Below are positions 33,222-63,950 of a stretch of 64,000 bases of DNA, piece by piece. The translations under genes and the position numbers were made by a program. Source of the stretch: Sporomusaceae bacterium (GTDB lineage Bacteria; Bacillota; Negativicutes; UBA1444); the NCBI GenBank assembly GCA_018434355.1, contig JAHDPL010000020.1:182255-246254 (forward strand), in the 5' to 3' direction. Numbering within the stretch: position 1 is the stretch's first letter; each line of letters opens with the position of its first letter. The notes beneath the pieces are model-generated. The model saw only the letters and a program-made list of their open reading frames with translations, ran no database searches and had not been told where the DNA came from.

Positions 33222-33222
33222 C

Positions 33223-34840: not shown

Positions 34841-34883
34841 TTTACTTCCCCCTTATTTGTTGACATTGCACTTGCACATCCAT

Positions 34884-35723
34884 TTAACTAAACAACGTTT
34901 CCGGATACGACCGGTTCGCCCCTTGCAGATGCAGTGTTGCGCCCTTGATGATCCGCTTGTCCACGTTGTCGCGCAATCTGGTCATCACCTGCTGCATGCT
35001 TTGCTGCACTTCCTGCGGCGTCAGTCTGCCGACTGACTCGGTCACCATCAGCTCGGGGATGTCCGTTTCCGGATCAATCAAACGGGCTAAACCACGAACA
35101 ACCGCCGAACTATCGATATAACTGGCGTTTGCCAGTGAAGTGGCGAACGCGTCGGCAATAGCGCATGATTTTGCCAACACCGTCACCGATTCCATGACGC
35201 CGCAGGTAAAACTGCGACCGCCCAAGCCGCTGGTGGCGATTCCGCCGATTCCGTCACCGGACGAAAGCTGAACCAGTTTGCTGAATCCTTCACCGCCAAT
35301 TTCCGGCATTACCCCGACTTTTGTCGTTTCTTCCGCCAGCAGGCGGATGGCGACATCGCCGCCATTATTCACCAGCACTTTGGTTGCCCCTTGTTGTTGC
35401 AACCAATCGGCGACCTTGTCGGCAAACGCGCCGGCCACTGCCGCCATCGGCGTCAATTCCTTGTCTGTGGTGGCTTGCACCGCCTGCCACATCGTAACGG
35501 CGACCCCGGATAGTTCTCCCGGTTCGCATTGGGTCCAGCTCCGTTTCAGAAACTTCAGCTGCGGCCCCAGTTCAGTCAGGCAATCAACCGCTATCTGACT
35601 CGCATCGCGACACAACTCAGTCAGCGGCTCACCATCCCGTGATGCGGCAATCACCATCGATATCGGTCCGTAGTCCAAAAACAGCTTGCCTGGACCCACT
35701 TCGGTCAACCACTGCGAATCCAC
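34884..35723 (-). CDS. ApbE-superfamily (UPF0280-like) protein; candidate flavin transferase/maturase
   Basis: The track ORF overlaps hnr by 123 nt and was trimmed to the GTG 8 nt after the hnr stop, preceded by a GGGAGA RBS. An alternative ATG lies at 35657. Contains GIATSGLGG and AIADAFATSLAN, which resemble the ApbE ATSG and ADAxATA signatures. Confidence 0.5.
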   Translation of the reverse strand: MDSQWLTEVGPGKLFLDYGPISMVIAASRDGEPLTELCRDASQIAVDCLTELGPQLKFLKRSWTQCEPGELSGVAVTMWQAVQATTDKELTPMAAVAGAFADKVADWLQQQGATKVLVNNGGDVAIRLLAEETTKVGVMPEIGGEGFSKLVQLSSGDGIGGIATSGLGGRSFTCGVMESVTVLAKSCAIADAFATSLANASYIDSSAVVRGLARLIDPETDIPELMVTESVGRLTPQEVQQSMQQVMTRLRDNVDKRIIKGATLHLQGANRSYPETLFS

Positions 35724-35728
35724 CGGGA

Positions 35729-37222
35729 TTATGCTTTCTCCCTTATTTGATCCACGGTTCTGATCTGACTCATATGGCCACCGATTGCCTCGTAATCGGA
35801 TTTTCGCAGCGTGTATTCCACCGGCGCCACCGTTGCCGGGGTCGGCACCCAAGTAAACGCTTTGGAAACGACTTTTTCCGCATCAACCATGAAATTGATG
35901 CCGCCGCCTGGCAGCACATAGGTCGGTGCGCCGCCAATCGTCAGGTTTACTATGCCGGCGTGAACCGCCCGCGTCAACGCCAACGGCTGGGTCGTAACCC
36001 CTGCCCGTGCGCTACCGCCGGTCCCGCCGGTGTAAATCACCGAAACCCTTGACTCTTCACAGTTGTCGGCAATCCGGTTCACCAGACGTTTTACCGGATC
36101 GCTCATTTCCAGCGAAGCCACAGTTCCGTCCGGCTGCACTTCAAACAATGCCGCTTTTTGTCCGGTAGTTTCCGTGACCAGTATTTTCATCCCCGCTTTG
36201 GCAATTGTCATATCGACCGATTTAATTGCTTCGATCGGGTGCTCGATATGAGTGCCGCCCCAGCCATGACCGTGTTCGCCAAAGTAGCGACTGCGGGTGC
36301 TCTTGCGGGCGTTTGGCACAACCCCGCTCCAGCTCATGCCGACTTCCGCGCCGGCCAAATGCTCCGAAAACAATCCGACAACATGGTGATCCAGTATAAT
36401 CGCTTCATCCACCACACCGACGAAATCCTTGGCAAACAGGCCGATTGTCGCACTGCCGCAGCCGACCCGCATCTTGGTGTCGGCAACGCCATTGATCACC
36501 GGCCGTTCTCCAGCCTGCAGTTCCAGTGTCGCGCCGTCCACCACCGTCAACTTGACTTTTTCGCCGTTGGCAAAGTCGACGATGGTACGGGCCACGATAA
36601 ATCCATCAGCGCCGGTCAACAAATTGGCTCCGCCGATGGAAAGCATCTTCGAGCCATATTCCTCGGTATCGACCATGCCGACAACCTTGCCGTCTCGCTT
36701 GATTTTTGCCCCTTCGGCGCCGATATGGTAATTGGTGTCGATTTTGACCTTAACGCCGCTATAGCTGAGCGGCGCTTCAGTCACAACAGTCACGACCTCA
36801 ACCCCGTCGACGACGCCGGAGACAATGTGCGGCGCCGGTTTGCAGCAAGGATAGGCTGTTCCGGCCCCTGCCGCCGTAATCAAAGGTTGGGCAATCGTGC
36901 CGTCAGATTTTTGACCAACGTAGTCGATCACCAACGCGCGATTACGAACAAGTTTTCCCTGACGGTTTTCATAACGGCGGCATGCGCCGGTAAATCCGTC
37001 CTGGATTTCACACTGCACCGGACAGGAACTGCATTTGATCGTGCCGGTTGCCTGTTCGGAGCGGGAAATCGCCTGAAATTTACAAACGCGGATGCAGATA
37101 TTACATTGGACGCAACGATCGCTGGCGACAGCCTTGCGCTCAATGAGGCTCAGCGCGCCGACCGGGCACTCCCGGACGCACATGCCGCAACCGACGCAGG
37201 TCGCGAGATTTATTTTCACCAT
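35729..37222 (-). CDS. hnr: Ferredoxin-domain oxidoreductase; candidate 6-hydroxynicotinate reductase
   Basis: 497 aa. The N-terminus has 2x[4Fe-4S] ferredoxin motifs (CVGCGMCVRECP, CVQCNICIRVC) plus a third Cys cluster (CSSCPVQCE). Sits between enamidase and the ndh genes, as in E. barkeri. Confidence 0.6.
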   Translation of the reverse strand: MVKINLATCVGCGMCVRECPVGALSLIERKAVASDRCVQCNICIRVCKFQAISRSEQATGTIKCSSCPVQCEIQDGFTGACRRYENRQGKLVRNRALVIDYVGQKSDGTIAQPLITAAGAGTAYPCCKPAPHIVSGVVDGVEVVTVVTEAPLSYSGVKVKIDTNYHIGAEGAKIKRDGKVVGMVDTEEYGSKMLSIGGANLLTGADGFIVARTIVDFANGEKVKLTVVDGATLELQAGERPVINGVADTKMRVGCGSATIGLFAKDFVGVVDEAIILDHHVVGLFSEHLAGAEVGMSWSGVVPNARKSTRSRYFGEHGHGWGGTHIEHPIEAIKSVDMTIAKAGMKILVTETTGQKAALFEVQPDGTVASLEMSDPVKRLVNRIADNCEESRVSVIYTGGTGGSARAGVTTQPLALTRAVHAGIVNLTIGGAPTYVLPGGGINFMVDAEKVVSKAFTWVPTPATVAPVEYTLRKSDYEAIGGHMSQIRTVDQIREKA

Positions 37223-37249
37223 AACGGTTCACCTCATTCTTCCGCTCGC

Positions 37250-38407
37250 TTACATTTTGGGGTTGCGCACGGCCGGCGGCGTATTGCGGCTGACCTTCAC
37301 CTTGATTTCTCCGTCGATAATGACCATCGCGACGCCAGGAACATCGCCGGCTTCGATCGCAGTCAACGCATCAGTGCCAATCGAACCCATCGGCGCATCC
37401 ATAATAACAAAATCCGCCTCTTTGCCGACTTCAATCATCGCGGTATTTAGTCCATAAGCTTTTGCTGTATTGCCGGTAGCCATCGCAATGCATTCGGCGG
37501 CGGCAATGCCGGAAACGCTGGAAATTTGGCAGATGTTGCGCAAGATGCCCAGCGGAATAATGCCGGTACCAGAAGGTGAGTCATTGCCAAAAACCAGACG
37601 ACCCAACTGATTCTTCACTTTCAATTGCCGCGCCACATAATCAGCCACTTTAGGATTGCCGCACTGGACAATCTCCAGCATGAAGTCGGTCTCATTAATC
37701 AGTCGGTCCACTTCGGACGGAGCAATCGCCGTAGGTCCGCCATTGATATGCGAAACGACCGTCGGTTTGGTTTTCATTACATCGTCGGCGGTAACGGTAG
37801 AGCTGCCGGGAATCGAGGTCCCGCCGCAGTGCATCTGGACCTTGAAGCCATGCTTTTTGGCCCATTCGACCATCGGCGCAGCATCAGCCGGTTTCTTCAC
37901 GCCGCCCAGACCCACTTCGCCAACCAGCCAAACGCCATTGGCCGCCATTTCAGCAAAATCGGCTTCGGTCAGCCCCGGTTCCAAAATTACTGCTCCAGCA
38001 TGCATCTTGACACCGGACGGGCGCGCATTATAGTACGATTTACTGGCTACAACCGCCAACGCCTTGACGCCTGCGGGATCTTTCGGACGACCGGGAAAAT
38101 GGGCTTCCCCTGCGGAAATCATCGTCGTGACGCCGCCATGTAGAGAACTGTCAATATAATCAAGCGTCTTTTGCCGGGGTGTAAAATCGCCAATCACCGG
38201 ATGCACATGCGAATCAATCAAGCCGGGCGTAACTGTGGCGCCATTGGCGTCAATCACTTTCAGCTCGGGATTTTGCGCAACCAGTTCCGCACCGCCGATA
38301 GCGGCGATTTTTTTGTCAACAACAACGATTGTGTTGCCTGCCAGCACCGGACACTCTATTTTTCCACTTACAATTGTCCCAATATTGGTGATAACCATCG
38401 AGCTCAT
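37250..38407 (-). CDS. ena: Amidohydrolase-superfamily enamidase (1,4,5,6-tetrahydro-6-oxonicotinate hydrolase)
   Basis: The true start is MSSMVITNIGTIVSG after an aagggggaag RBS. Contains TPGLIDSHVHP, MHCGG and VSHINGG metal-ligand motifs of the bimetal amidohydrolase fold. Confidence 0.75.
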   Translation of the reverse strand: MSSMVITNIGTIVSGKIECPVLAGNTIVVVDKKIAAIGGAELVAQNPELKVIDANGATVTPGLIDSHVHPVIGDFTPRQKTLDYIDSSLHGGVTTMISAGEAHFPGRPKDPAGVKALAVVASKSYYNARPSGVKMHAGAVILEPGLTEADFAEMAANGVWLVGEVGLGGVKKPADAAPMVEWAKKHGFKVQMHCGGTSIPGSSTVTADDVMKTKPTVVSHINGGPTAIAPSEVDRLINETDFMLEIVQCGNPKVADYVARQLKVKNQLGRLVFGNDSPSGTGIIPLGILRNICQISSVSGIAAAECIAMATGNTAKAYGLNTAMIEVGKEADFVIMDAPMGSIGTDALTAIEAGDVPGVAMVIIDGEIKVKVSRNTPPAVRNPKM

Positions 38408-38475
38408 CATTTCTTCCCCCTTCGAAGTGTGGGCGGGTCTGTCCCCACAGACCCGCACCATCGCATTGAATTTAA

Positions 38476-39510
38476 TTAGTTGTCTAGTTTCATGTCACCG
38501 TATTTGATCATGCCTTTTTTCCGCATGAATTCAGAAATCAACAGAGTCAGGATTGCCGGTAAAACAAAGTGCAACATGACAACCTTAAATATCACGTCTC
38601 CACCCATACCCATGGCTTCAAAAGTGCCGAACTGACCTACAAGACCGCTGGTCCCCATACCGGCGCCTGCCGGCACGTTTTTCATCGGCCAGATCGTTGT
38701 GGCAATCGGGCCCAGTATCGCCCCAGCCAAAGTGGGAGGCACCAGAATCATCGGACTACGCACTATATTGGGCACCTGCAGCATCGAAGTTCCCAGTCCT
38801 TGAGAAATCAGTCCGCCCCAGCCATTCTCACGATAACTGGCCACAGCAAAACCAACCATTTGCGCCGCACAACCGACGGTCGCAGCACCGGCCGCCAGCC
38901 CGCCCAATTTCAGCATCATCGCCAACGCGGCGCTGGAGATCGGCGCGGTGAGGATCAGGCCCATCATAACCGAGACAAGGATTCCCATCGGAATCGGATG
39001 CAGTTCGGTCGCTTTCATGATCAACGCACCCAAGGCAACCATCAAGGTGTTAATGGTCGGACCGATGAATACGCCGGTTGCGACGCCGGTGATAATCGTG
39101 ACCATTGGGGTAACGATGATGTCAACTTTGGTTTCTTTGGATACCAGCTTGCCGAACTCAGCGCCGATAACAGCGGCTACGAAACAACCAGCAGGTCCGC
39201 CGAGCTTGGCGCCGGCCATACCGGTGATGGTCGAGGCAAACAGGACCAGCGGAGGCGCTTTTAGGCCAAACGCAACCGACACGCCGATAGCGGGTCCCAT
39301 CATCGCCATGGCTTGCAGACCGTAATCCGTCAGAAGTTTGATGCCAGTCTTATCGCCAATGACTTTGAGAATAAGGCCGACGATAAGGGACGAAAAGAGT
39401 CCGAGCGCCATTGCGCCAAGTGCTTCGATACCATACCGATGCAAAGAGAACACGATGTTCTTCCGCTGAAGGAAACTTTGCTTTTCAGCTGCCGCAGGTG
39501 TAGTTGACAT
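38476..39510 (-). CDS. Polytopic membrane protein, PTS-EIIC-like/PfoR-type permease; candidate nicotinate (or intermediate) transporter
   Basis: 344 aa with about 10 TM segments rich in Gly/Ala. Lies inside the nicotinate-fermentation operon between ena and ndhM. Confidence 0.45.
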   Translation of the reverse strand: MSTTPAAAEKQSFLQRKNIVFSLHRYGIEALGAMALGLFSSLIVGLILKVIGDKTGIKLLTDYGLQAMAMMGPAIGVSVAFGLKAPPLVLFASTITGMAGAKLGGPAGCFVAAVIGAEFGKLVSKETKVDIIVTPMVTIITGVATGVFIGPTINTLMVALGALIMKATELHPIPMGILVSVMMGLILTAPISSAALAMMLKLGGLAAGAATVGCAAQMVGFAVASYRENGWGGLISQGLGTSMLQVPNIVRSPMILVPPTLAGAILGPIATTIWPMKNVPAGAGMGTSGLVGQFGTFEAMGMGGDVIFKVVMLHFVLPAILTLLISEFMRKKGMIKYGDMKLDN

Positions 39511-39549
39511 GGATTCATCCTCCTCTTTTTGTGTGGCTGTTGGCTCTGG

Positions 39550-40605
39550 TTATCCCTGGAGTTGTAGTTTAGCCAATACTTTGTCCGCGGTAATGGGGAG
39601 GTCGGTAATTCTGACACCGACTGCATTGTAAACGGCATTGGCAATAGCAGCAGCCGTTGGAATCAGAGCCGGTTCACCGACGCCCTTTGCTCCGAAAGGC
39701 CCGGTCACGGCAGGGTCTTCCACAATGATCGACTGAATCGGCGGCACGTCGAGCGATGTGGGCAGAACATACGTGGTAAAGTTTGCTGTCGCCACGTTCC
39801 CCTGCTTGACCTGGACTTCTTCCATCAATGCATAACCTAATCCGATTGCACACCCCCCTTCAATTTGGCCTTCCACGTTTTGCGGGTGAATGGCCTTGCC
39901 CACATCGTGGGCCGCAACGATTTGTATCACATCAACAACTCCGGTCTCCGTATCGACTTCCACTTCCACCACCTGTGTAGCATAAGCATAGGTCGCATAC
40001 GGCCTGCCTTGACCTGTTTCCATGTCAAGACCGGTAGTGTCGGGGTTGAACCAGCCATGCCCGAGCGATAGTTTTCCTTTGGCCCGGCATTTGGCGATGC
40101 AATCTACAATACTGATCGATTTGGCGTCGGTCCCCGGCGTCAGACCCAGCGCGATTTGGCACTCGGCCTGGCAATCGACCAGATCTTTGGATTTGTCGGA
40201 CTGGGTTCGCACGGTCAACATCCGATCCGCTGCAACAATATCGGCTACACCAACGCCGAGCGCCTCGGCTGCAGCTTCCACTATGACGGATTTGGCCTGT
40301 TGCGCTGCCATCCGCACCGCATTGCCGGAGATATAGGTCTGGCGGCTGGCCGACGATGCCCCCGCATCCGGCGTTACACCCGTATCGGCAGAAACGACCC
40401 GGACATCGCCGATTTTGACGCCTAGCTCTTCGGCGGCAATCTGGGCCAGCGCGGTAGTCGAACCTTGTCCGATATCGGCGCACCCTGTCAGCACCAGCAC
40501 AGTGCCGTCATCCAGTAAATCCACATAAGCGCCTGCCGGATTTGGCAAGCCGGTGTTTCCGATTCCATACCACATGGAGGCCATGCCGATTCCTCGTTTT
40601 TTCAT
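39550..40605 (-). CDS. ndhM: Molybdenum-hydroxylase Mo-binding subunit, C-terminal half (split large subunit); candidate nicotinate dehydrogenase medium subunit
   Basis: 351 aa of the XDH/CODH family C-terminal region (GQGSTTALAQIAAEELG ... GEPALIPTAAAIANAV). Confidence 0.8.
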   Translation of the reverse strand: MKKRGIGMASMWYGIGNTGLPNPAGAYVDLLDDGTVLVLTGCADIGQGSTTALAQIAAEELGVKIGDVRVVSADTGVTPDAGASSASRQTYISGNAVRMAAQQAKSVIVEAAAEALGVGVADIVAADRMLTVRTQSDKSKDLVDCQAECQIALGLTPGTDAKSISIVDCIAKCRAKGKLSLGHGWFNPDTTGLDMETGQGRPYATYAYATQVVEVEVDTETGVVDVIQIVAAHDVGKAIHPQNVEGQIEGGCAIGLGYALMEEVQVKQGNVATANFTTYVLPTSLDVPPIQSIIVEDPAVTGPFGAKGVGEPALIPTAAAIANAVYNAVGVRITDLPITADKVLAKLQLQG

Positions 40606-40615
40606 GTTCTCCCTC

Positions 40616-41887
40616 CTACCAGTTCAGTTCCATAGTCTTCTTCGCACCTGCGGTTGCGGCTTCCAGGGTTTCTACGATGCCCACACTGTCTTTCAGCTCA
40701 GTTCCCGTTCCAGTGAACGAGCCTGGGCGCAGGGCATTGATCAAACGAATTTTCAGCGGCGAAACGCCGAGTTTTTCAGCCAGGATATCCATCTGGCTTT
40801 CATGGGCGAATGCGACCTGCGGCACGCCAAAGCCGCGCATCGCGCCAGCCTGGGGATTGTTGGTATAGACGGTATAGGCGTCGACTTTCACGTTGGGGAC
40901 TTCATACGGCCCCATCACGTGAACTGCCGAGCGGGTCAAAGTACCTGGACCGTAGGAGGCGTAAGCGCCGGTGTCGCCGATGATGCTTGCTTCGAACGCC
41001 AGCAGTTTTCCATTGGCATCGCTGCCGCTCTTCAGTTTCATAATGAAGGGATGACGCTTTACACTGTTGGCAATCGACTCGTGCCGACTGTAAATCATTT
41101 TGACCGGACGCCGCGTCGCCACCGCCAACAAGCCTAGATGCACCTGAACCGAAACATCCAATTTGCCGCCGAAGCCGCCGCCGGTCGTCGCTTGGATCAC
41201 CCGGACCCGGTTAAGGCCGATGTTGAGATTGCGGGCGATTTCTTTCGCGTCATAATGGGGGTTTTGCGTACAGACCCAAACTGTGACAATATCGCCATCC
41301 AGCTTTGCCACGCCCGCTTCCGGCTCGATATAGGCATGTTCGGCCATTTGTGTCTGGTAGTCTTGTTCGACGATGACCGCACACTCGGCAAAGGCTTTTT
41401 CCACGTCGCCGCGGCGAATTTTTCGGACGGCCAGCACATTGCCTTTTTCATAGATTTTCGGCGCATCATCCTTCATCGCTGCGACCGGATCAAACACCGC
41501 CGGCAATTCATCCACCTTGACTTCGATCAAACGCAGAGCTTGTTCAGCAATTTCTTCGGTTTCCGCAGCGACCAGTGCAATCGGGTCACCGATTTTACGG
41601 ATTTTCTGACCATTTTTCACCAAGACCGGCTCATCTTTAATGATGATGCCGCTGCTGTTCGAACCGGGGATATCGTCGCCCGTCAATACGGAGACAACTC
41701 CAGGCAGCGCTTTTGCCTTGCCCGTGTCGACCGACAGCAGAACGCCGTGGGCAACCTTGCTGCGCAGTGTCTTGCCGTAAATCATGCCGGGGAACTGAAT
41801 GTCGGCAGCGTATTTTGCCACGCCGAGAACTTTTTCGACGGCATCCAGTTTTTGGACGGAATGGCCGATGACTTTGTAATCACTCAC
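40616..41887 (-). CDS. ndhL: Molybdenum-hydroxylase Mo-binding subunit, N-terminal half; candidate nicotinate dehydrogenase large subunit
   Basis: The start was re-placed at a GTG that overlaps the ndhS stop (GTGAGTGA), after a GGAGG RBS. The protein begins VSDYKVIGHSVQKLDAVEKVLG. Confidence 0.8.
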   Translation of the reverse strand: MSDYKVIGHSVQKLDAVEKVLGVAKYAADIQFPGMIYGKTLRSKVAHGVLLSVDTGKAKALPGVVSVLTGDDIPGSNSSGIIIKDEPVLVKNGQKIRKIGDPIALVAAETEEIAEQALRLIEVKVDELPAVFDPVAAMKDDAPKIYEKGNVLAVRKIRRGDVEKAFAECAVIVEQDYQTQMAEHAYIEPEAGVAKLDGDIVTVWVCTQNPHYDAKEIARNLNIGLNRVRVIQATTGGGFGGKLDVSVQVHLGLLAVATRRPVKMIYSRHESIANSVKRHPFIMKLKSGSDANGKLLAFEASIIGDTGAYASYGPGTLTRSAVHVMGPYEVPNVKVDAYTVYTNNPQAGAMRGFGVPQVAFAHESQMDILAEKLGVSPLKIRLINALRPGSFTGTGTELKDSVGIVETLEAATAGAKKTMELNW

Positions 41888-42353
41888 GGTCTTCACCTCC
41901 ACCTTGGCAGGCCACTTTTTCAATGGCGTTGACGATTTTGGTATAACCGGTGCAACGGCAGAGATTGCCGGAAATATGCCGGGAAATTTCTTCGCGTTTT
42001 GGATGCGGATTGACATCCAGCAACGATTTGGCGCTGAGCAACATTCCTGGCGTACAAAAGCCGCACTGTACCGCTCCCTCGGCGATAAACGCCTCTTGCA
42101 GCGGATGCAGTTTGTCATAGTCGCCAAGTCCTTCAACGGTTACGATATCATGCCCGTCGGCTTTTACCGCCAACATCAGGCAGGAATTCACATTTTTCCC
42201 GTCGACCAAAACGGTGCAGGCGCCACAGTCTCCTTCGCCGCAACCGACTTTGGTTCCTGTCAGTCCCAGCCGTTCCCGCAGCAAATCGACAAATAGCAAC
42301 TCCGGCTCGACTTCCAGTTCAATCGGTTTACCATTCAAAACAAATTTAATCAT
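41880..42353 (-). CDS. ndhS: [2Fe-2S] small subunit of the molybdenum hydroxylase
   Basis: The true start is MIKFVLNGKPIELEV. Contains CGEGDCGACTV and CGFCTPG ... CRCTGY motifs. Confidence 0.85.
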   Translation of the reverse strand: MIKFVLNGKPIELEVEPELLFVDLLRERLGLTGTKVGCGEGDCGACTVLVDGKNVNSCLMLAVKADGHDIVTVEGLGDYDKLHPLQEAFIAEGAVQCGFCTPGMLLSAKSLLDVNPHPKREEISRHISGNLCRCTGYTKIVNAIEKVACQGGGEDRE

Positions 42354-42357
42354 TCGT

Positions 42358-43230
42358 TTACTCACAAACGCACACCTCCATAGCCTGCTTCGTCGCCGCT
42401 TCCAAACACCGCTGCACAGTAACTCGCGCCAATTTTCCCCGGTGCGTTGCAGTACAACGGACGTCATCAATCGGTCGGACGCTTTGTTCGGCTTGCAACC
42501 CGGCTTCGGCAAACACTGCCGGTTCCGGTTTGCGACCGACCAACCACTTTTCTGTCTCGTACAGACGAACCGGCGTCGGACCGACCGATCCCAAAGCAAT
42601 GCGCGCTGCAGTAATTACGCCGCCCTGCACGCGTACCCAGGCCGCTCCATTGACAATCGAGCAGGCCAGCGCCTTGCGTTTGCCAAATTTGGCGAATGCC
42701 GCGCCTTCCCCTGCAGCAACCGGCGAAACATGGATTCCGGCGATATATTGGCCCGATTTTAGGCAAGTCCTGCCAGGTCCGACAAAAACTTTATCCAAAG
42801 GCAGATTTTCTGAGCCATTCGCGCTATTTAGCTGTACTTTTGCGTCAAGCGCCAACAATGCCGGTACAGTATCGGCCGCCGGCGAAGCATTGCCGATATT
42901 GCCGCCTACGGTTCCTGCATTGCGGATTTGCGGCGATCCCACTTCCGAAGCCGCCAGGCAGAGCGCGGCTGTTTTTTTGTTCATCACAGGCGAATCCATC
43001 AATTCCCTGTGCGTGACCAGCGGCCCGATCCAAAGAGAGCCGGCTGTTTCGCGAATCCCCTTGAGACTTTCAATCCCGCTGACGTCGACCAAATTGCGCG
43101 GAGAAATCAACTTCTCCTTCATCTTGACCATGACGTCGGTCCCGCCCGCCAAAAGGCAGTAGTCTTCCATCCCGTTCAAAAGAGCCGCCAATTCAGTTTC
43201 GCTTTTGGGACTGTGGTAATTGAACTGCAT
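42358..43230 (-). CDS. ndhF: FAD-binding subunit (CoxM/XdhB-like) of the molybdenum hydroxylase
   Basis: The true start is MQFNYHSPKS. Contains the FAD motif LLAGGTDVMV and AGTVGGNIGNASP. Confidence 0.85.
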   Translation of the reverse strand: MQFNYHSPKSETELAALLNGMEDYCLLAGGTDVMVKMKEKLISPRNLVDVSGIESLKGIRETAGSLWIGPLVTHRELMDSPVMNKKTAALCLAASEVGSPQIRNAGTVGGNIGNASPAADTVPALLALDAKVQLNSANGSENLPLDKVFVGPGRTCLKSGQYIAGIHVSPVAAGEGAAFAKFGKRKALACSIVNGAAWVRVQGGVITAARIALGSVGPTPVRLYETEKWLVGRKPEPAVFAEAGLQAEQSVRPIDDVRCTATHRGKLARVTVQRCLEAATKQAMEVCVCE

Positions 43231-43297
43231 TTTGTCACCCCACAACTACTTTTTTTGTTTTTACTGTTTTGTCCATTTTGACTCGTTCTGTTAATAT

Positions 43298-43633: not shown

Positions 43634-45214
43634 CTAGGACGATTCCAGGCCCATTTCCACCATTTTTCGCCACAAAGTCGTTGTACTGATTCCCAACAGG
43701 CGAGCTGTTTCCTGCCGCGATCCGCCGCTAGCTTTGAGCGCCCGCAAAACACAGTCGCGCTCAGTTGCCCGCACCGCCTCAGCCAGTGACAAAATCGTTT
43801 GTTTCGCTCCGGCCCCGCCATGACCGGCTTGCAAGTACTGCGGCAAATGCTCGATTTCGATGCAATTTTCATTGATACTGATCACATTCATCGCATACTC
43901 AATGCAGTTTTGCAGTTCCCGCACATTGCCTGGCCAGTTATGCAACTGAAAGCGTTTTCGGCACTCGCCCGAGACGCCCATGACAAACTTGCCCAGCAGC
44001 TTATTGTAACGATTGACAAACACGCGGATAAAATCCGGGATATCATCGAGTCGGTCGCGCAGCGGCGGCACTTTGATCTGCACAACATTGAGCCGGTAGT
44101 AAAGGTCTTCACGAAACTTGCCATTGCGGACCATATCCAGCAAATCACGATTGGTCGAGGCAATCACCCGGACATCGACCTGAATCGGCTTCGACCCACC
44201 GATACGGGTCACTTCGCGTTCCTGCAACACCCGCAGCAATTTGCTTTGCAATGTGAAATCCGTTTCTCCTAGTTCATCGAGAAAGATCGTTCCGCCATCG
44301 GCTTGTTCAAACGCGCCGGGATTGCCGCTTTTTTTCGCGCCGGTGAACGCGCCCTCATCATAACCGAATAGATAGCTCTCGATAATAGTTGCGGGAATCG
44401 CACCGCAATTAATCGCAACAAACGGCTTGCTGGCCCGGTCACTGGCGTTGTGGATGCTTTGGGCGAAAAGCTCCTTGCCGGTTCCAGTCTCGCCGGTGAT
44501 CAGTACGGACGAAACGCCCTTGGAAACATAGGAAGCCATATTGCTGACTTTTTTTATCGCCTCGCTGCTACCGACAATATCAGAAAAGCTGTAACGGGCG
44601 TACTGGAACTTTTTGAACTCCTCAATCAGTTTCTGCTGGCGCTGGACGCCGTGAAGGTTGTTGAAGCCAAAACCAAAGCGCTTGGTGATTGGAATCCTAA
44701 CCGCCACTGCGCCGATATCGGACATTGACTGGCCGATAACCGGTCGTTGCGTTTGCATCGCTTCCCTCGCCGCCACGCTGACTTTGCCAATGAATTTGTT
44801 TTCTTCGCCGGTCGGGTCATAGCTAGCTAAACGCTGGCCTTCCGCATCAAAAATGACCGCTTCGCCGCCGGCCACCCTGGCAATGAACGGCAATGCCTGT
44901 TTCAAAGATTCCTGTAGCTGATCGTCCCGCAACACCCGTTCCAAATTGCTGGCCGACAATACATAGTCGCCAATCGGTAAACTCCACGCTTCGGCGCTTT
45001 CAACAATTTGCGAAGGACCCGCCGTCAAAGTCCCGCTCTCAGAAGCCTGCCGGGCCAAGTCAAATACCAGCCCCTTCAATTCGGCGATCTCTTCCCCTTC
45101 GGAATCAACTGTTTTGATCCTTACACCGCAGCGGTCGGTTAGCGTCGCGTAGCCGCCGGTGATGCGGGCAATAATTGGCAATGCCTCCAGCAGCATCCGG
45201 GTCGAATTGTCCAT
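43634..45214 (-). CDS. Sigma-54-dependent transcriptional activator with a novel ~200-aa N-terminal sensor domain; candidate nic-cluster regulator
   Basis: 526 aa with AAA+ motifs [14 protein letters not shown] and ESYLFGY, and a C-terminal [16 protein letters not shown]. Immediately upstream of the sigma-54 promoter of ndhF. Confidence 0.85.
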
Positions 45215-49102: not shown

Positions 49103-52100
49103 CTACTCCCCGAACAGCCCTCGTATCTCAGCTTCCGTCATCTTGCCGATGAAGCTTTCGCCCGGCTGAATCAGCGAGTCAACCAGTTCGCGCTTGCGTT
49201 CCTGCAGCGCCAAGATTTTTTCTTCGATCGTGCCTTTGGCTACCAGTTTAAACACCTGCACCACATTTTTCTGGCCGATGCGATACGCCCGATCCGTCGC
49301 CTGATCCTCGACCGCCGGATTCCACCACGGGTCGCAGTGGATCACCATATCGGCACCGGTCAGATTCAGCCCTGCCCCGCCCGCCTTCAACGAAATCAGA
49401 AAGGCGTCCCGCTCGCCGCGGTTAAATGCGTTGACCCGCTGAATCCGGTCCTGGGCCGAGGTCCCGCCGTCCAGATAATGCCAGGATACCTCCAGTTCAT
49501 CCAGCACCGGTTTGATCAAATCAAGCATGCCGGTGAACTGCGAAAAGATCAGCAGACGGTGCCCCGCCGCCACCGCATCGCGGACCACATCGGCGATCAG
49601 TTCCATTTTGCCGCTGCCACCGCTGTAGTTTTCGACAAACAGCGCCGGGTGACAGCAGAGTTGCCGCAGGCGGGTCAAGATCGCCAAAATCTCGATTCGG
49701 CTCTGGTCAAATCCTTTGGTTTCGATTTCCTGTTCAAATTCCTGCCGCGCACTCATCAACCACGCCGTATAGAGCCGGGTCTGTTCTGCCGTCATCGGCG
49801 CGCTCAGCTGGCTCTCGATTTTTTCCGGCAGCTCCTGCAGCACGGTATGCTTCATCCGGCGCAGCAGGAACGGATGGATATGCCGCGACAGTTCGCGCAG
49901 CACCGGCGAGTTGGGGTCTTTGGCGACCGGCGCTTCAAACCGCTTGACAAACGAGGCGTGATGCCGCAGATAACCGGGCATGACATAATCAAAGATCGAC
50001 CACAGCTCGGTCAGCGAGTTTTCAATCGGCGTGCCGGTCAGCGCAAAGCAGCAACCGGCCCGAATCCGTTTCACGGCTTGGGCGTTCAGCGTCTGCGGAT
50101 TTTTTATATTTTGCGCTTCGTCGAGGAAGCAGGTTTTCCACTCCAGTTGTTCATACAGTTCGATATCGCGTTTCAGCAGCCCATAAGAAGTAATGACCAG
50201 ATCGACTGCCTCCAGGTCTGCAAGCGCGGCCTGCCGTTCCCCTTGTTGCCCGGTAACTACCAACGTGCGTAGCTCCGGTGTAAATTTGGCGGCTTCCTCC
50301 TGCCAGTTGTAGACGAGCGAAGTCGGCGCCACCACCAGCGACGGTCTCCCTTCTTGCCGCACCGACATCAGGTAGGCCAGCACCTGCAGCGTTTTTCCCA
50401 GGCCCATATCATCAGCCAAGATCCCGCCCATTCCATGACGGGCCAAGGCTTTCAACCATTTAAAGCCGGTCTTTTGATAGTCGCGCAGCGTGGCCTGAAT
50501 GCCGGCCGGTAGTTCATCTTCGCTATCCTGCGGTTCGCGCAGCTCCTGCAGCATGCGCCGGACGGCGCCGCTGCGCTCCACCACCAACGTTTCATTCATC
50601 CGGGCCAGGTTGTCCAGCGTCAGCGCCCGGTATTTGGGCAGACGGATCACCGCCTGTTTCATATCGGCCGCCGCCAGTCCCAGCTGTTCGACCAGTTGGG
50701 CCGCAGCCGCGAACTCCGGTTGGTCCAGTCCCAAAAATCTGCCGTCACCCAGGCGATGATAGCGTTTTTTCAGCCGATAGGCTGCCAGCAGTTCCTGTAG
50801 TTCCTCCGGCTGCAGGCCGCCGCAGTCCAGTGTCAGTTCCAGCCAGTCAAAGTCATCACTCAACCGAACCGCCGCCCTCACCCGCAGTTTGCGGTTCGAG
50901 TGCAACGCGGCGAATTCATCCGACAGGTACACTTCAAACTGGTCGAGCAGCTCCGGTAATCCTTCCTGAATAAAATCATAGGTAGCCTCTTCGTCCGGTT
51001 GCAGCAACGTTTCCCCCTGCGGCATAAACCGATGGTCAAGAAAAATTTGCAACAGACGCACCTCGGCCTGCGAGTCGCGCACCAGATAGCGGCCCGATTC
51101 ATCTACGGTCTTACTGCTGGTCGACAGGGCCGGGTTGATCACGATGTCGCCATAGCGAAACTCTACCCGTGCACTGACGCCCATTTCGTAGCGATCCAAA
51201 AATACCACAGCCGCCAGCGGTTCGCGATACAGTTTGTCGCGCACCGTTTCCGCCAACACGACTTCGCCGACAGTCTCCAGCGCCGGTAGCACGTCCGAAG
51301 CAAAATCGGACACCGAGGCTGGCGGCAGCAAAATCTCGCCTTGCCTGCCGTCACGGAAAGCCTGGCTCATCGGCGCAACTGCCTGGGAAAATTCCGCATC
51401 GACCTGATAAATCACGCCTTGATGATAAACATGACGCCAGTCCGCCTCAAGGCCGCACAGCTGCTCCGCCGGATCGGCGTAACGCAGCCGAAACCCGCCG
51501 GGATCACCATCAATCGCAAACCGTACCGACGGACGCCCCAATCGAACTGGTGTCGGTTCGGTCGGTCGGTACTGAATCGACGCCAGAACGGACTGATTCT
51601 GATACAACTGCAGAAACTCCGCCAATGAAGCCCGAGTCAGCCGAAACCGTCGTCCTGTCTCAAACACCGAAGCGCCGACGCCGGAGTAGGACCAACCGGC
51701 CCGTTCCTGTTCCTCGTCATAGGCCAGTTGCAACATGTGGAGCAGGTGCAGCGAAACCGTGTCAAGCTCCGACTGCGAACGCCGCAACGAACACTGTTTG
51801 CCCAGCACGATTTCCGCATCGGCCTGCCAGTCGCGCAAAAACTCGGGGATATTTTTCACCACATACAGTCGGTCGTTGCCCAGCGAAAACTCTAGCCAGT
51901 TCGCCCCTGCACCACGATGGCTGTCGTGCACATGGAACAGGGTCGGTTCCAGCCGCACCGCTTGTTTTTCCTTTTGCCGCAGACTTGGCGCCGGACGCAC
52001 CCGAAAATGCGCCAGCAATTGCTGCACCGAGGCGTTGGATCGATCTTCCGCGGGAACCCGTGGCGCTGGTGGCAAATATCTGGGCATTGCGCTGTCGCGG

Positions 52101-52402
52101 CTTACTTGCGGCGGGTAATAATTCCACCAGTCTCGTTGAATCGTTTTTAGCACAGCCACGATATGTTTGCAGGCCCCGTCAAATTTGGCAAAAGCCGGAC
52201 AATCGCAAAAATTGTGCAACACCTGTCCCGCTGTATCGAGTTTCAATTCTACGTAATACAGTTCGCCGCCGCGCACTTCCGCTTCAAAGGTGCCGGAGTC
52301 GCGCTGATGCAGTGTTTTTACGTTGCCGGCAAGATAATAGCTGCAACCTTTGCTGTATGCCGGTCCCGCCGCCAATTGCCGAATCGTGTTTTCCGTCAAC
52401 AT
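49103..52402 (-). CDS. SWIM-zinc-finger SNF2-family DNA-dependent ATPase/helicase (YwqA/RapA-like)
   Basis: Start taken at MLTENTIRQLAAG. The N-terminus has a SWIM motif (CDCPAFAKFDGACKHIVAV). The C-terminal SNF2 core carries a DEAQ box (FLDEAQNIKN), and helicase-C motifs. Confidence 0.85.
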   Translation of the reverse strand: MLTENTIRQLAAGPAYSKGCSYYLAGNVKTLHQRDSGTFEAEVRGGELYYVELKLDTAGQVLHNFCDCPAFAKFDGACKHIVAVLKTIQRDWWNYYPPQVSRDSAMPRYLPPAPRVPAEDRSNASVQQLLAHFRVRPAPSLRQKEKQAVRLEPTLFHVHDSHRGAGANWLEFSLGNDRLYVVKNIPEFLRDWQADAEIVLGKQCSLRRSQSELDTVSLHLLHMLQLAYDEEQERAGWSYSGVGASVFETGRRFRLTRASLAEFLQLYQNQSVLASIQYRPTEPTPVRLGRPSVRFAIDGDPGGFRLRYADPAEQLCGLEADWRHVYHQGVIYQVDAEFSQAVAPMSQAFRDGRQGEILLPPASVSDFASDVLPALETVGEVVLAETVRDKLYREPLAAVVFLDRYEMGVSARVEFRYGDIVINPALSTSSKTVDESGRYLVRDSQAEVRLLQIFLDHRFMPQGETLLQPDEEATYDFIQEGLPELLDQFEVYLSDEFAALHSNRKLRVRAAVRLSDDFDWLELTLDCGGLQPEELQELLAAYRLKKRYHRLGDGRFLGLDQPEFAAAAQLVEQLGLAAADMKQAVIRLPKYRALTLDNLARMNETLVVERSGAVRRMLQELREPQDSEDELPAGIQATLRDYQKTGFKWLKALARHGMGGILADDMGLGKTLQVLAYLMSVRQEGRPSLVVAPTSLVYNWQEEAAKFTPELRTLVVTGQQGERQAALADLEAVDLVITSYGLLKRDIELYEQLEWKTCFLDEAQNIKNPQTLNAQAVKRIRAGCCFALTGTPIENSLTELWSIFDYVMPGYLRHHASFVKRFEAPVAKDPNSPVLRELSRHIHPFLLRRMKHTVLQELPEKIESQLSAPMTAEQTRLYTAWLMSARQEFEQEIETKGFDQSRIEILAILTRLRQLCCHPALFVENYSGGSGKMELIADVVRDAVAAGHRLLIFSQFTGMLDLIKPVLDELEVSWHYLDGGTSAQDRIQRVNAFNRGERDAFLISLKAGGAGLNLTGADMVIHCDPWWNPAVEDQATDRAYRIGQKNVVQVFKLVAKGTIEEKILALQERKRELVDSLIQPGESFIGKMTEAEIRGLFGE

Positions 52403-52449
52403 TGAATAGTATCCCTCGTATTTCCATCTCAAAATAAAGCTTTCCCAAG

Positions 52450-52492
52450 TTATGCCCATGTTATGCGCAAGTTATCCACAGATTAATCCACA
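52450..52492 (+). promoter_or_regulatory. Array of four head-to-tail DnaA-box-like 9-mers at an 11-bp period
   Basis: The four boxes are ttatgccca, ttatgcgca, TTATCCACA (perfect consensus) and taatccaca. The array lies 50-90 bp upstream of the SNF2 helicase start. Confidence 0.5.
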
Positions 52493-52645
52493 GACCAGGA
52501 CTTCAACCCAATCGTTTCCACCAGTTCGCCAAAGTCCTCCAAACGTCGCTATTTCGACGTTAAATCGACTACGCTTCACCACGAACGTTCATCGGTCGCG
52601 GACCATCACCTTATTATTTCAGTGGATGCCTGTGCATAACTTTAT

Positions 52646-52693
52646 AAAAGGGGTTGCGGGCAAACTTATGAAAAGTTTTCCCCAACCCCTTCT
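52646..52693 (-). terminator. Putative terminator of the amino-acid-catabolic operon
   Basis: Stem aaggggttg/caacccctt with a long loop; the minus sense is followed by UUUUAU. Confidence 0.45.
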
Positions 52694-52740
52694 ATTATAC
52701 AGATATTATGACTGTCTACCTAGTTCGACTTTGGCAACAG

Positions 52741-54099
52741 CTATTCCCCTCGCTGTGCCAGGATTTTATGGTTGTACGGCGCCACTTTCGCGTACTCTGC
52801 TTCCCAGAACGCCTGGTCCTGCATGCTGTCCAGATAGGCCTGCGTGTAACCGAACTTCAGCCAGTCCGATTCTTTTTGGCGGAACAACCGCTGTTTTGCG
52901 GCGGGACGACGCACATCGTAGATGTGCTGTTCATCGGCCTGGATGAAAATATCCTGGGTCCAGCGGCTCAGCACATTCTCGGTCAGTTCCAGATACCGCG
53001 CGTTTAATTCTTCCAGCACCGAGTCGTAGCGGTCAAATCCGTCGGTGGCAATCGTCACCACATTGTCGCCAGGACCGAACCGCATGTGTTTGGCCAGTTT
53101 GATCGCGCCAATAATGTTGCAGATGCCCGAAGGTCCGACAGCATAAGTCAGGATTTTGGCCAGTGCGGGATCGATACCCATTTTCAGCAGCAAATCGGTC
53201 CCGTCATGAAACACTTTGACGCCCTGGACGGTTTCTTCGTCTTTGATCAGGATAATGAAATCGGTGGTCAGCACGTTGTGGATCAGCGTGCACATCTTGT
53301 CGCCGATCCCCTCGATCCGGTGCTGTCCCAGTCCGCCATTGGCGAGGGTAGAACACTCATACGGCTCCAGTGCGGCCACTTTTGCTTCAGGGAAAGCAAC
53401 TTTGATTTGGTCGCCAGCCGCCAAGGTCCCCGCCGAACCGGGAGCGGAGGTAAATCCGGCGATGCGGCCGTTGCCAACACCTTTTACCGCTTCGATGGCA
53501 CTGCCGCCGGTGACATGGCGATGGAAACGATAGTTGGCCATCAGTTCAAACTGGGCCAACGCTTTATTTTTCGGGTTCTTCATCATTTCATGGGTCCGTT
53601 CCAGCGTCAGGATGACATCAGACTCGGAACCCGGCGTCAACTCCAATTCGCCGCCGTATCTGCGAATCCGCTCGTAACGTTCCTTGCTCATGTTGTCCGG
53701 CATGATCACGACCGCCTTCAGGCCGAGCAGCTTGGAGATATAGGCAGTGCCAATACCGAAGTTGCCTGTCGAGGGGCCGAGAATCGTATGCTCCGCTGAG
53801 ATCTCGCCATCGACCAGGCCTTCGATCAACGTGCTGTATGCCGGCCCCACCTTGTGCGAGCCGGACGGGAATCCACACCCCAGCATAACCACGATATTGG
53901 CATCCACGCCGGTCAGCTCCGGTGGCAGCACAATCTTGCGCACTTTATTGTCGGCATCTTTCCAGTTGATATTGAAAAGATTGATTGGATCCATTTCATT
54001 GTCATGCAGTTGTTTCAGCGCCGTCGCACGCACATCCGGCGAGATTGTTTCAGGATGCAGCATTTCATCGTAAGTCGGTCCGAACGGAACCTTATTCAT
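52741..54099 (-). CDS. Fold-type-II PLP-dependent enzyme (cysteine-synthase/diaminopropionate-ammonia-lyase-like) with a ~100-aa C-terminal extension
   Basis: Start at MNKVPFGPTYDEM. Contains a PALP Lys motif region (GSHKVGPAYS) and a Gly-rich loop (GPSTGNFGIG). Confidence 0.7.
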   Translation of the reverse strand: MNKVPFGPTYDEMLHPETISPDVRATALKQLHDNEMDPINLFNINWKDADNKVRKIVLPPELTGVDANIVVMLGCGFPSGSHKVGPAYSTLIEGLVDGEISAEHTILGPSTGNFGIGTAYISKLLGLKAVVIMPDNMSKERYERIRRYGGELELTPGSESDVILTLERTHEMMKNPKNKALAQFELMANYRFHRHVTGGSAIEAVKGVGNGRIAGFTSAPGSAGTLAAGDQIKVAFPEAKVAALEPYECSTLANGGLGQHRIEGIGDKMCTLIHNVLTTDFIILIKDEETVQGVKVFHDGTDLLLKMGIDPALAKILTYAVGPSGICNIIGAIKLAKHMRFGPGDNVVTIATDGFDRYDSVLEELNARYLELTENVLSRWTQDIFIQADEQHIYDVRRPAAKQRLFRQKESDWLKFGYTQAYLDSMQDQAFWEAEYAKVAPYNHKILAQRGE

Positions 54100-54117
54100 C
54101 AAATTTCCCTCCAAGGT

Positions 54118-62056: not shown

Positions 62057-62130
62057 TCTCATTTTGATTCAGTTGCTTTCTTGTAGTATCGCCAACAGGC
62101 CTAAAAATTAACTATTCTCATTTTGATTCA
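62057..62130. repeat. Two identical 15-mers tctcattttgattca 59 bp apart, plus a third partial copy at 62134-62144. Candidate enhancer sites
   Basis: Direct repeats about 60 and 120 bp upstream of the sigma-54 promoter. The distal copies overlap the last codons of the activator gene. Confidence 0.45.
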
Positions 62131-63950
62131 TCATTCTCATTTTGAGACGAATCAATTGAAATTTTATACTGCTTCAATTTCCGGTACAAAGTTGCCTTGC
62201 TGATTCCCAGCGCCTTAGTCAGTTGGGCTTTGCCGCGCATGCTCAGGCCAAATGTTTCGATTGCGTTCAAGATTGCGTTCTTTTCCAGTTCGGCGATCGT
62301 GAGCAGGCGATTCGGTTGCGCCTCAACCGCCGAACCCGGTCGCGCGGGTTTGCCGGCTATCATTATCCGCGGCGGGATGTGCCGCTGCTCAATAATTTTA
62401 CTGTCCGCAATACTGACCAGATATTCAATTGTATTCTCCAATTCGCGAATATTGCCGGGCCAGTCGTACTCCAGCAGACAAGCGTAAGCTCCGGAATCGA
62501 TGCTCTCGACGTTCTTCGCCATTTTTTCGCGATAACGTGCCAAAAAACGGTCGATCAACAAAGGCAGATCCTGCCGACGATCACGCAGGGCAGGAATCTG
62601 CAATGGAAAAACATTGATCCGATAGTACAGGTCCTGGCGAAACTCACCCTGGCGAACCATCGCCTCGATATCCTTGTGCGTAGCCGCGATAATCCGCACA
62701 TCAATTTCCGTGGTTTGCGTACTACCAACTCTTTCGATCCGTCTTTCCTGCAACACGCGCAAAAGTTTAGCCTGCAATGTCAGCGACATGTCGCCAATTT
62801 CATCAAGAAAGACCGTTCCGCCATCAGCCAGTTCAAATTTTCCGGGTTTGCCGCCGCGTCTGGCGCCGGTAAACGCCCCTTCTTCATAGCCAAACAATTC
62901 GCTTTCCAGCAAGGCTTCGGGAATCGCCGCGCAATTGATTGCAATGATCGGTTTTTCCCGCCTGGCGCTGGCATTGTGAATCGCACGGGCGAACAGCTCC
63001 TTGCCTGTTCCGCTTTCACCCAGTATCAGCACTGTCACGCTGCCGGTCGCCGCCTGCGTAGCTTCCTGTTTCGCCCTGGCCAAAGCAGGGCTTTCGCCAA
63101 GAATCATCTCAAAACTGAAGCAGTGTTCCTGGGTAGACAGATTGGAAACTATTTTTTTTACTTCGGCCATTTCCCGCAAAGTTACGACAGCACCCAAAAC
63201 TTCCGTCCCGCCCAACCAGGTTTTAACGGTTGCTACATAATAAACGCGCTGCCCCCGGATCAAGCGGAACGCTTCCCGATTAAAAACATCATGGCCGGTT
63301 GACAGACTGTCCGCCAACGGCAAGCCGGAAAGCAGAGCAGCCAATTCCTTGCCCATCACCGACTTCTGCGCAACTTGCAACATTTTCGCTGCCGCTGCGT
63401 TGATATTGACGATTCGTCCGTTACGATCTACTGCGACAATTCCTTCCTGCACCGTATCAAACAAGGTCGTCAGTTGCTGCTGGATGGCATGCAGTTGTTC
63501 CAGCCGTTCTCGCCCGGCGATCTTGCCGGCCAACAAATCCGCCATTCGCTGCAAAAAATCAAATAATCCCTCAGGGTTCGCCAAGAGAATCCGATATTGC
63601 GTCTCATCGCAGGCAATCAGAGCAATCACGCCGATCACCTGGCCGTCCAGCATGATCGGGCAACAGACCTCGGCCCGCTCCTCACAGCTTTGTTTGCCTT
63701 CGCAGGTATTGCAGACCTGATGTTCGCGCGGATTCGCAATGATAAATCCGCGGCCTTCCCGCAACACTGCAGCAAAAGCCGAGTCCTTCACCAGGCGGTC
63801 ACCAATTTTTCCCGCATAACGCCCGGTTCCGGCAATGCGATGCAAGCGTTCATCGGCAATCGTCACTTCCACCGTCAGAACACTGGCAATCGCTTCTGCC
63901 ACTTGCTGCACATCGAGTTGGTTCTTGTTCAGAAAGGTATCCTGCAACAT
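62118..63950 (-). CDS. Sigma-54-dependent activator with N-terminal GAF and PAS sensor domains (Fis-family HTH)
   Basis: 610 aa. The sensor has a Cys cluster ([19 protein letters not shown]). AAA+ motifs [14 protein letters not shown] and ESELFGY are present, and the C-terminus carries an HTH ([13 protein letters not shown]). Confidence 0.85.

Follow-up and report, generated by a model that had tools for sequence, protein, structure and literature searches.

Introduction

The initiator protein DnaA acts at chromosomal sites outside the origin of replication as well as within it. In B. subtilis it represses dnaA, ywlC and yydA, and six non-origin clusters of DnaA boxes, the positions of which differ between Bacillus species, restrain initiation (PMC3245932): their deletion advances it, and an ectopic copy can complement the loss. 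Clusters of this type are usually proximal to oriC. In E. coli, DnaA-ATP represses nrdAB, presumably through the exclusion of RNA polymerase (PMC8203912), and boxes set in the same direction support head-to-tail oligomers of ATP-DnaA at both oriC and datA (PMC5742627). Non-origin sites couple the replication status of the cell to gene expression and buffer the initiator, and they have been mapped in a few model species only. Here we describe an array of DnaA-box-like motifs from a Sporomusaceae bacterium, found within a 64,000-nucleotide stretch of contig JAHDPL010000020.1 (assembly GCA_018434355.1; this whole stretch is referred to as the window, and positions given without a locus label are counted from its first letter). 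The array, at 52450-52492, lies directly upstream of a gene for a helicase with SWIM and SNF2 domains, and we find that it is real, if fairly ordinary, and belongs to a known kind of DnaA site outside the origin.

Results

A pattern search for TTATNCACA with at most one mismatch located four plus-strand 9-mers, starting at 52450, 52461, 52472 and 52484, and thereby bore out a sequence-only reading of this DNA, which had reported four such motifs of a single orientation within 52440-52500. Positions 52450-52492 read TTATGCCCA-tg-TTATGCGCA-ag-TTATCCACA-gat-TAATCCACA on the plus strand; the motif, TTATNCACA on this strand, is TGTGNATAA on the strand of the helicase gene, along which the same array is TGTGGATTA-atc-TGTGGATAA-ct-TGCGCATAA-ca-TGGGCATAA. 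The spacing had been given as exactly 11 bp, whereas the measured start-to-start steps are 11, 11 and 12 bp, the last being off by one. The box at 52472-52480 (TTATCCACA, hereafter box B) is perfect and is likely the high-affinity nucleation site. Each of the other three carries one mismatch: the distal box TAATCCACA at 52484-52492 (box A, which together with box B forms a conserved core pair), a weak, lineage-specific box TTATGCGCA at 52461-52469 that is separated from box B by a 2-bp gap, and a second weak box TTATGCCCA at 52450-52458, the nearest to the helicase gene. A gap of 2 bp is reportedly that of the E. coli oriC arrays, as Rozgaja et al. are said to have described in 2011.

The window as a whole is not enriched in 9-mers of this type (23 seen against 32 expected), and the clustering at this locus is non-random. 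Six of the 23 fall within 254 bp in the intergenic region upstream of the helicase gene, and the only two perfect TTATNCACA matches in the 64 kb are found there as well. Among 5972 windows simulated under a first-order Markov model, none contained four or more same-strand boxes in 45 bp (the maximum was three, reached in 8 simulations), and none contained a chain of three or more boxes at 9-12-bp steps; the analytic expectation is 4e-6 for any four boxes in 43 bp, and 4e-9 for four at 11/12-bp steps. Across 858 kb of related loci, phased chains of at least three boxes were encountered at a single site besides this array, an unrelated one in locus L057. This locus belongs to a Desulfotomaculum metagenome-assembled genome (MAG), and its independent four-box same-strand chain (10463-10510; TTATTAACA, TTATCCACA, TTGTCCACA, TTATACCCA) lies 3 kb downstream of the L057 SNF2 helicase gene and approximately 150 bp upstream of an open reading frame (ORF) that resembles a cold-shock protein (MLGKVKWFNAKKGYG...).

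Orthologues of the helicase occur across the Bacillota at 36-95% identity, the best genome match being a 'Veillonellaceae' MAG at 95%, and boxes were sought upstream of the gene in 80 orthologous loci of species-representative genomes and in 11 further loci obtained through protein matches. The array is present in ten related sequences, namely the window, L001 (CAZFSM01), L049, L081 (GCA_032941855.1)/L082, L083, L084, L085, L004 (CAXXIN01), L088 and L003 (DATMYT01). The helicases of these Negativicutes relatives are 62-95% identical, and every locus of this clade that keeps the ancestral gene junction (described below) has the array. In all of them the boxes take one orientation throughout, at steps of 9, 11 or 12 bp. 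The constant core consists of two boxes 12 bp apart, the second of which is always a perfect TGTGGATAA; of the three spacer bases within the core, only the third is constant (C), the two before it being free to vary, and weaker boxes flank the core on either side in a lineage-specific manner, again at 9, 11 or 12-bp steps. Box A, 12 bp from box B in every locus, reads TGTGGATWA in all array-bearing loci but L049 (TGTGGATTG) and L088 (TGTGTATAA, a perfect TTATNCACA match). As such, the four-box array as first described stands clade-wide in respect of boxes A and B, and the other two boxes are not shared across the clade.

The lineages differ in what surrounds this core. L001 and L049 (helicases 95 and 92% identical to that of the window) combine the same core with the proximal boxes TGCGGGTAA, which has two mismatches and is the equivalent of box 52461, and TGGGTATAA, the equivalent of box 52450. 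In L081 and L082 (84%), the core pair is followed by a terminator hairpin in place of box 52461. The array of L083 (64%) reads TGTGGGTAA-TGTGGATAA-aac-TGTGGATAA, that of L004 and L085 (62%) reads TGTGGAAAA-TGTGGATAA-gtc-TGTGGATAA-cta-TGTGAATAG, and L084 (65%) and L088 (64%) have five boxes each. For the 1140-residue L083 helicase, the called start (2719) seems to have been placed about 38 codons upstream of the true one, the similarity to the other helicases beginning at 2833; with the real start near 2833, the L083 array would therefore lie approximately 220-250 bp from it. Directly downstream of the L081 helicase gene, at 7789-9608 of that locus, are a PF28093 (STM3845) gene, a reverse transcriptase (RVT_1) and a ParA/CbiA-like ATPase, which together resemble a retron-like or defence insertion that the window does not have.

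Conservation in relatives had been put forward as a check on the array, and the outcome favours it: the array is kept above the level of coding DNA. In pairwise blastn comparisons it forms an island of 47 bp at 89% identity between L003 and L084, of 52 bp at 90% between L003 and L088, and of 57 bp at 93% between L004 and L088, against helicase genes that are 73-78% identical in the same pairs, and 70-78% between the loci overall, and flanks that do not align. These data bear directly upon the notion that the boxes clustered by chance, or arose through neutral short tandem duplication of a segment in which one DnaA-like 9-mer was present by accident. Its copies do have flanking bases in common (CAAGTTA...), as duplication by slippage would give. 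However, the positions that have been kept are those of the boxes, the first two spacer bases being variable, and neither the simulations nor the 858 kb of related loci offer a comparable cluster beyond the one in L057; the reading is refuted because of the conservation data, and we regard it as wholly improbable.

Turning to similar geometries elsewhere, a metagenome scan for TGTGGATAA-N3-TGTGGATAA matched more than 120 stretches, of which 80 loci (L092-L171) were examined. Ten of the 80 carry dnaA, and in six or seven of these the pair precedes dnaA by 20-380 bp, oriented as in the window; approximately 70 are not next to dnaA. Co-oriented perfect pairs stand upstream of an rlmH/yydA-type SPOUT methyltransferase gene (SPOUT_MTase; L097, L146 and L154), of the gene for the ribonucleotide reductase small chain (nrdB, Ribonuc_red_sm; L131), of nrdR (L129), of gyrB (L105), of the exonuclease VII large subunit gene xseA (L100) and of a low-molecular-weight phosphatase gene (L149). 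The range of 20-380 bp also takes in the pairs of the methyltransferase, nrdB, nrdR and gyrB. The pair was also seen upstream of pncB (L098) and of DUF6017 genes (L096 and L106). An SNF2 helicase gene or ptsI was next to the pair in none of the 80 loci. These observations hint at a broad and partly conserved DnaA regulon that is visible in metagenomes. Given that the array is conserved above coding DNA in ten related sequences, and that the same tandem geometry recurs upstream of dnaA, rlmH/yydA, nrdB and nrdR, the prediction that it is a functional DnaA-binding site is strongly supported.

The invariant C at the third spacer position and the partial conservation of the box flanks would also suit operators of another DNA-binding protein with a DnaA-box-like motif. 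We consider this very unlikely, as every related locus has at least one exact copy of the 9-bp consensus TTATCCACA (two in L083, L084, L004, L085 and L003, while L088 has three perfect TTATNCACA matches), the variable position coincides with the N of TTATNCACA, the array has no linked regulator gene, and the geometry is that of the dnaA, rlmH and nrd promoters. DnaA, moreover, occurs universally and would in any case bind sites of this kind.

The helicase gene (49103-52402, minus strand) encodes 1099 residues in which Pfam recognizes a SWIM zinc finger, SNF2_assoc, an SNF2-related domain (SNF2-rel_dom) and Helicase_C. Its start is the ATG at 52402, an ATGTTG start being common to all relatives, and is preceded at a distance of 9 nt by the Shine-Dalgarno sequence GAGGGA (52412-52417, minus strand; GAGGGG in L001/L049). 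The array is therefore 48-90 bp upstream of the start codon. Relative to L001/L049, the segment between array and ATG contains indels of 16 nt and 5 nt, and because these are not multiples of three the segment is non-coding. An N-terminal extension of the helicase across the array, from the in-frame ATG at 52459, was ruled out by these indels and by the conserved ATGTTG. A plus-strand ORF at 52452-52946 was likewise dismissed as spurious, in that it crosses a terminator, runs antisense to the upstream gene and has no homology in L001 beyond 52494.

That upstream gene (52741-54114, minus strand) encodes a pyridoxal-phosphate-dependent (PALP) enzyme, and bounds the intergenic region without being part of the element. 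Its intrinsic terminator hairpin (52644-52695, minus strand; -30 kcal/mol, z = -6.5) is followed by UUUUAU, and the helicase gene must therefore have its own promoter within 52403 to approximately 52644. A search of the intergenic region for structured RNA gave no Rfam family, and sub-threshold hairpin matches at the terminator only. A relaxed promoter scan of 52403-52660 yielded two candidates, both overlapping the boxes. The first predicted promoter (52449-52478, minus strand) is wholly within the array, with -35 TGGATA (52478-52473), an 18-nt spacer and -10 CATAAC (52454-52449), and its equivalent in L001/L049 has a better -10, TATAAC. The second (52431-52458, minus strand) is predicted to have its -35, TGGGCA (52458-52453), in the proximal box, followed by a 16-nt spacer and -10 TATTTT (52436-52431); it is the less likely of the two because its -10 segment is deleted in L001/L049. 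Since the array overlaps the only promoter-like hexamers of the helicase gene, DnaA probably represses it. We therefore lean towards the view, on sequence grounds, that the array is a selected non-origin DnaA-binding site whose most likely consequence here would be repression of the helicase gene by promoter occlusion.

The gene had been described as RapA/YwqA-like, which is apt for the SNF2 ATPase core (SNF2-rel_dom and Helicase_C) and extends no further than the level of domains, the N-terminus being of the SWIM and SNF2_assoc type. YwqA of B. subtilis and RapA of E. coli are RNA-polymerase-binding ATPases that act at replication-transcription conflicts (PMC12448304), and a functional link of the present helicase to such conflicts is speculative. 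Its best NCBIfam match is pilus_reg_Snf2 (591 bits, below the cut-off of 1100). A protein search with the N-terminal 450 residues returned one match only, and a metagenome scan with the N-terminus returned none. A role for the helicase in a defence system was considered and rejected, as PADLOC matched the generic SNF2 core only and there are no partner genes.

At the gene junction, the ancestral order was a phosphotransferase system (PTS) operon (EIIABC, HPr and PtsI), followed by the array and then the helicase gene. The PTS operon is still found upstream of the array in L081, L083, L085, L004 and L003; relatives carry it between PALP/M20/amidohydrolase genes and the helicase gene, and in them the array begins 10-50 nt past the stop codon of ptsI or EIIA. 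In the window we find a decayed remnant of the 3' end of ptsI, the gene for PTS enzyme I (52530-52645, minus strand), recognised by an exact 15-mer (found in 0 of 500 shuffles) together with a further match of 13/15, the two sharing a frame and spelling SYAQ...S-TDE, which we read as marking the loss of the entire EIIABC-HPr-PtsI operon. Nucleotide homology with L001/L049 takes up again at precisely 52494, where the array has its distal edge, and the array has been kept at the level of the helicase gene. Since it was kept while the adjacent neutral DNA decayed, its function is independent of ptsI.

The second perfect box of the window, TTATGCACA, is inverted (52631-52639, minus strand), stands 139 bp from the array and falls within the 15-nt stretch that agrees in every base with the coding sequence of ptsI in L001/L049 (codons S-Y-A-Q). 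It is not conserved beyond L001/L049, and its function is doubtful because the equivalent site is not a box in L004, L081 or L083. Another box with one mismatch, TTATACAGA (52695-52703, plus strand), is located between the stop codon of the PALP gene and the terminator, and has position 52695 in common with the hairpin stem, of which this is the first base; the box is not conserved, and chance probably accounts for it.

In the PTS-bearing relatives, the proximity of the array to the end of the operon, upstream of a terminator hairpin and with all boxes facing one way, would be suitable for a transcriptional roadblock, in which array-bound DnaA aids termination at the 3' end of the PTS operon and limits read-through into the helicase gene. 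This cannot explain the retention of the array in the window, because the operon has been lost and a strong terminator already stands 150 bp upstream, yet the array was kept as the ptsI remnant decayed. In L084, moreover, the upstream PTS has been reduced to the EIIA gene with five boxes kept. We judge a roadblock to be quite improbable.

A number of observations weigh against promoter occlusion as described above. In the window itself, a strict sigma-70 scan detects no promoter upstream of the helicase gene, and both candidates from the relaxed scan are weak (8/12). In the clade with helicases of 62-65% identity, the helicase gene is separated from the array by a hairpin and a conserved GTCGTATAAT -10 element, the conserved TATAAT being approximately 85-130 bp downstream of the array and behind the hairpin; the array is thereby placed approximately 85-130 bp upstream of the likely start site, which is too far for simple occlusion. 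L081 has a GC-rich terminator between the array and the ribosome-binding site. In L003 the array (318-359) still follows ptsI, and a 3.6-kb insertion separates it from the helicase gene; there, as in L086 and L087, the helicase hairpin and GTCGTATAAT promoter module are kept with no boxes nearby. Finally, no array was found upstream of helicase orthologues at or below 52% identity (60+ loci, including Sporomusa, Pelosinus, Desulfosporosinus and Clostridium), where the density of boxes is that of the background, and a general association between DnaA boxes and this helicase family was rejected on the basis of the same loci and of the 80 metagenomic tandem pairs, none of which adjoins an SNF2 helicase gene. 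The clade-wide constant is thus the array itself, and not its adjacency to the helicase promoter, as L003, L081, L086/L087, the 62-65% clade and the orthologues at or below 52% all indicate. Because the relation between array and promoter differs between lineages, promoter occlusion cannot be a clade-wide explanation. It is plausible for the window, where, as in L001 and L049, the hairpin/GTCGTATAAT module is absent and the array abuts the leader and overlaps the only promoter-like hexamers. Taken together, these differences suggest that the local regulatory consequence of the array is not the same in all lineages.

The same observations lend themselves to another explanation, namely that the array is an autonomous DnaA-box cluster that holds or inactivates DnaA, by titration as at the B. 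subtilis DnaA-box clusters (DBCs) or in a datA-like manner, with no meaningful effect upon the helicase and with a historical reason for its position at the PTS-helicase junction. The array has survived three rearrangements (the PTS losses in the window and in L084, and the 3.6-kb insertion in L003), and its distance and relation to the helicase promoter vary between lineages. Its titration capacity is small, however, since it has only 4-5 boxes, and in all loci except L003 it is immediately upstream of the helicase transcription unit. L003 is itself a mosaic (1-367 against 4001-7994): the ptsI 3' end and array are 95% identical to those of L004, against 71% for the helicase and approximately 70% for the downstream genes. 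It may be a recent recombinant or a chimera of MAG assembly, and for that reason says little about selection. We regard an autonomous cluster as the main rival explanation, if a rather unlikely one. The sequence-only reading had offered either regulation of a remodeller gene or a secondary cluster of the kind known in Bacillus; the DnaA site common to both proposals is strongly supported, and the comparative data fit both.

The array was also said to be far from any dnaA/dnaN context, and this holds for the whole 64 kb. A tblastn search with B. subtilis DnaA gave no match in the window, the Pfam annotation of 49 ORFs contains metabolic, transport and regulatory genes and no replication genes, and the GC skew is negative and monotonic, with no switch. 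None of the array-bearing contigs extends to dnaA. The basal unwinding system of origins requires three or more DnaA-trios no further than 16 bp from a box, together with an AT-rich element (PMC8287927). Neither a conserved DnaA-trio run nor a conserved AT-rich element was found on either side of the array in the window and the related loci; runs of three NAN triplets are sporadic and at chance level, and the flanks, at 43-63% A+T, are unrelated between lineages. An ordinary origin, which the sequence-only reading had named as its refuting case, is excluded as far as these data reach (no dnaA/dnaN, skew switch, conserved trios or DNA-unwinding element). The same evidence applies to a secondary or displaced origin, or an origin-like unwinding module. 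Tandem same-direction boxes with gaps of at most 3 bp do constitute the box part of the basal unwinding system (PMC8287927), but the array has a stop codon on one side and a ribosome-binding site on the other, and we find this reading to be largely refuted and of negligible probability.

Other classes of site were considered in turn. The core of a DnaA-reactivating site (DARS) is made up of three boxes, of which box I is oriented against boxes II and III, with head-to-head contact (PMC5742627); a site of this type was rejected, as no locus has an array with boxes of mixed orientation and the sole inverted box, at 52631, is 139 bp away. A datA-type site of DnaA-ATP hydrolysis combines same-direction boxes with an essential IHF-binding site at a fixed spacing; same-direction boxes are present, and no conserved flank able to hold an IHF/HU site was seen, although no dedicated search for IHF/HU sites was made. 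Iterons of a plasmid or phage were rejected in view of the conserved chromosomal context across relatives and of the window having no rep, integrase or phage genes.

Elsewhere in the window, a gene cluster at 25626-43245 is assigned by Pfam to PrpF (methylitaconate-isomerase type), a B12-binding mutase subunit, a reactivase-type member of the MutL family (PF13941), aconitase-family large and small subunits, amidohydrolases, AA_synth, a 3-hydroxyisobutyrate-dehydrogenase-type reductase and molybdopterin dehydrogenase subunits (FAD_binding_5, Ald_Xan_dh_C, MoCoBD_1/2), and is listed along with a PEP_mutase/ICL-family lyase at 24754-25629. The cluster presumably resembles the nicotinate-fermentation pathway of Eubacterium barkeri. 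Three sigma-54 enhancer-binding activators are encoded in the 64 kb (13323-15203, plus strand; 43634-45214 and 62118-63950, minus strand), one of the PrpR_N type and one with GAF/PAS domains, and each adjoins a catabolic operon.

Discussion

It is reasonable to postulate a sequence of events by which the array could repress the helicase gene in the window. Based on the established affinity of DnaA for its boxes, domain IV of DnaA would bind the perfect box at 52472-52480 and its neighbour 12 bp away at 52484-52492, and ATP-DnaA may then extend head-to-tail from this pair onto the weaker boxes at 52461 and 52450, across gaps of 2 bp, much as at datA and at the low-affinity arrays in oriC of E. 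coli. As the only -35/-10-like hexamers from the upstream terminator to the helicase start codon are those covered by the four boxes, the filled array would be expected to occlude RNA polymerase. Abundant active DnaA would thus repress the helicase gene, and its depletion or titration would lift the repression. The array would in any event sequester a few DnaA molecules, and could contribute to DnaA titration in this manner.

A broader proposal may be entertained tentatively: either DnaA directly controls an SNF2-family translocase of DNA or RNA polymerase in this clade, or the array is the first datA/DBC-like locus of DnaA homeostasis to be recognised in the Negativicutes. In the latter case, one possibility is a mobile 45-bp module that has been kept through repeated rearrangements. 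If direct control were to hold, the abundance of an enzyme that clears protein-DNA complexes or remodels them would depend on the state of replication initiation or of replication stress. A link between DnaA and an SNF2 translocase is absent from the DnaA regulons in the literature surveyed, and the accessible portions of the B. subtilis in vitro DNA affinity purification and sequencing (IDAP-seq) study of DnaA binding, with its supplements, make no mention of ywqA, ywqB or ptsI. A true regulatory link would add a new target class to the DnaA regulon; otherwise, the array is one more titration site. Either way, it offers a small and testable 45-bp substrate for cooperative filling by DnaA outside the origin, and a comparatively validated example from an uncultured Negativicutes lineage, with a minimal core of two boxes 12 bp apart accompanied by variable weaker boxes.

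The known systems each share a portion of these features. As in the basal unwinding system of oriC (PMC8287927), the array has a tandem pair of boxes with a gap of at most 3 bp; in contrast to it, conserved DnaA-trios, an AT-rich element and an origin context are absent. The array resembles the E. coli oriC arrays (R5M-tau2-I1-I2 and C3-C2-I3-C1) and datA in that its boxes have one direction, with strong boxes flanking weaker ones (PMC5742627), and is unlike them in its location away from an origin, without an unwinding element and with no IHF site identified (no dedicated search having been made). The resemblance to DnaA-repressed promoters (dnaA, yydA/rlmH and ywlC of B. subtilis, and nrdAB of E. 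coli) lies in same-direction consensus boxes within approximately 100 bp of the start codon, which read TGTGGATAA on the coding strand, and in the occurrence of the perfect pair with a 3-bp gap upstream of dnaA, the rlmH/yydA-type SPOUT methyltransferase gene, nrdB and nrdR in metagenomes. It differs from these in its target, as a SWIM/SNF2_assoc helicase is absent from the DnaA targets in the literature surveyed, and in that its distance to the promoter, which for the helicase is predicted only, is not conserved within the clade. Finally, in common with the DBCs of B. subtilis, the array is intergenic, outside the origin and beside genes unrelated to initiation, at a location specific to the species or clade (PMC3245932), and it may control a nearby gene as well as titrate DnaA; what sets it apart from the DBCs is its compactness, with 4-5 boxes in 43-53 bp, and its occurrence in a lineage of the Negativicutes.

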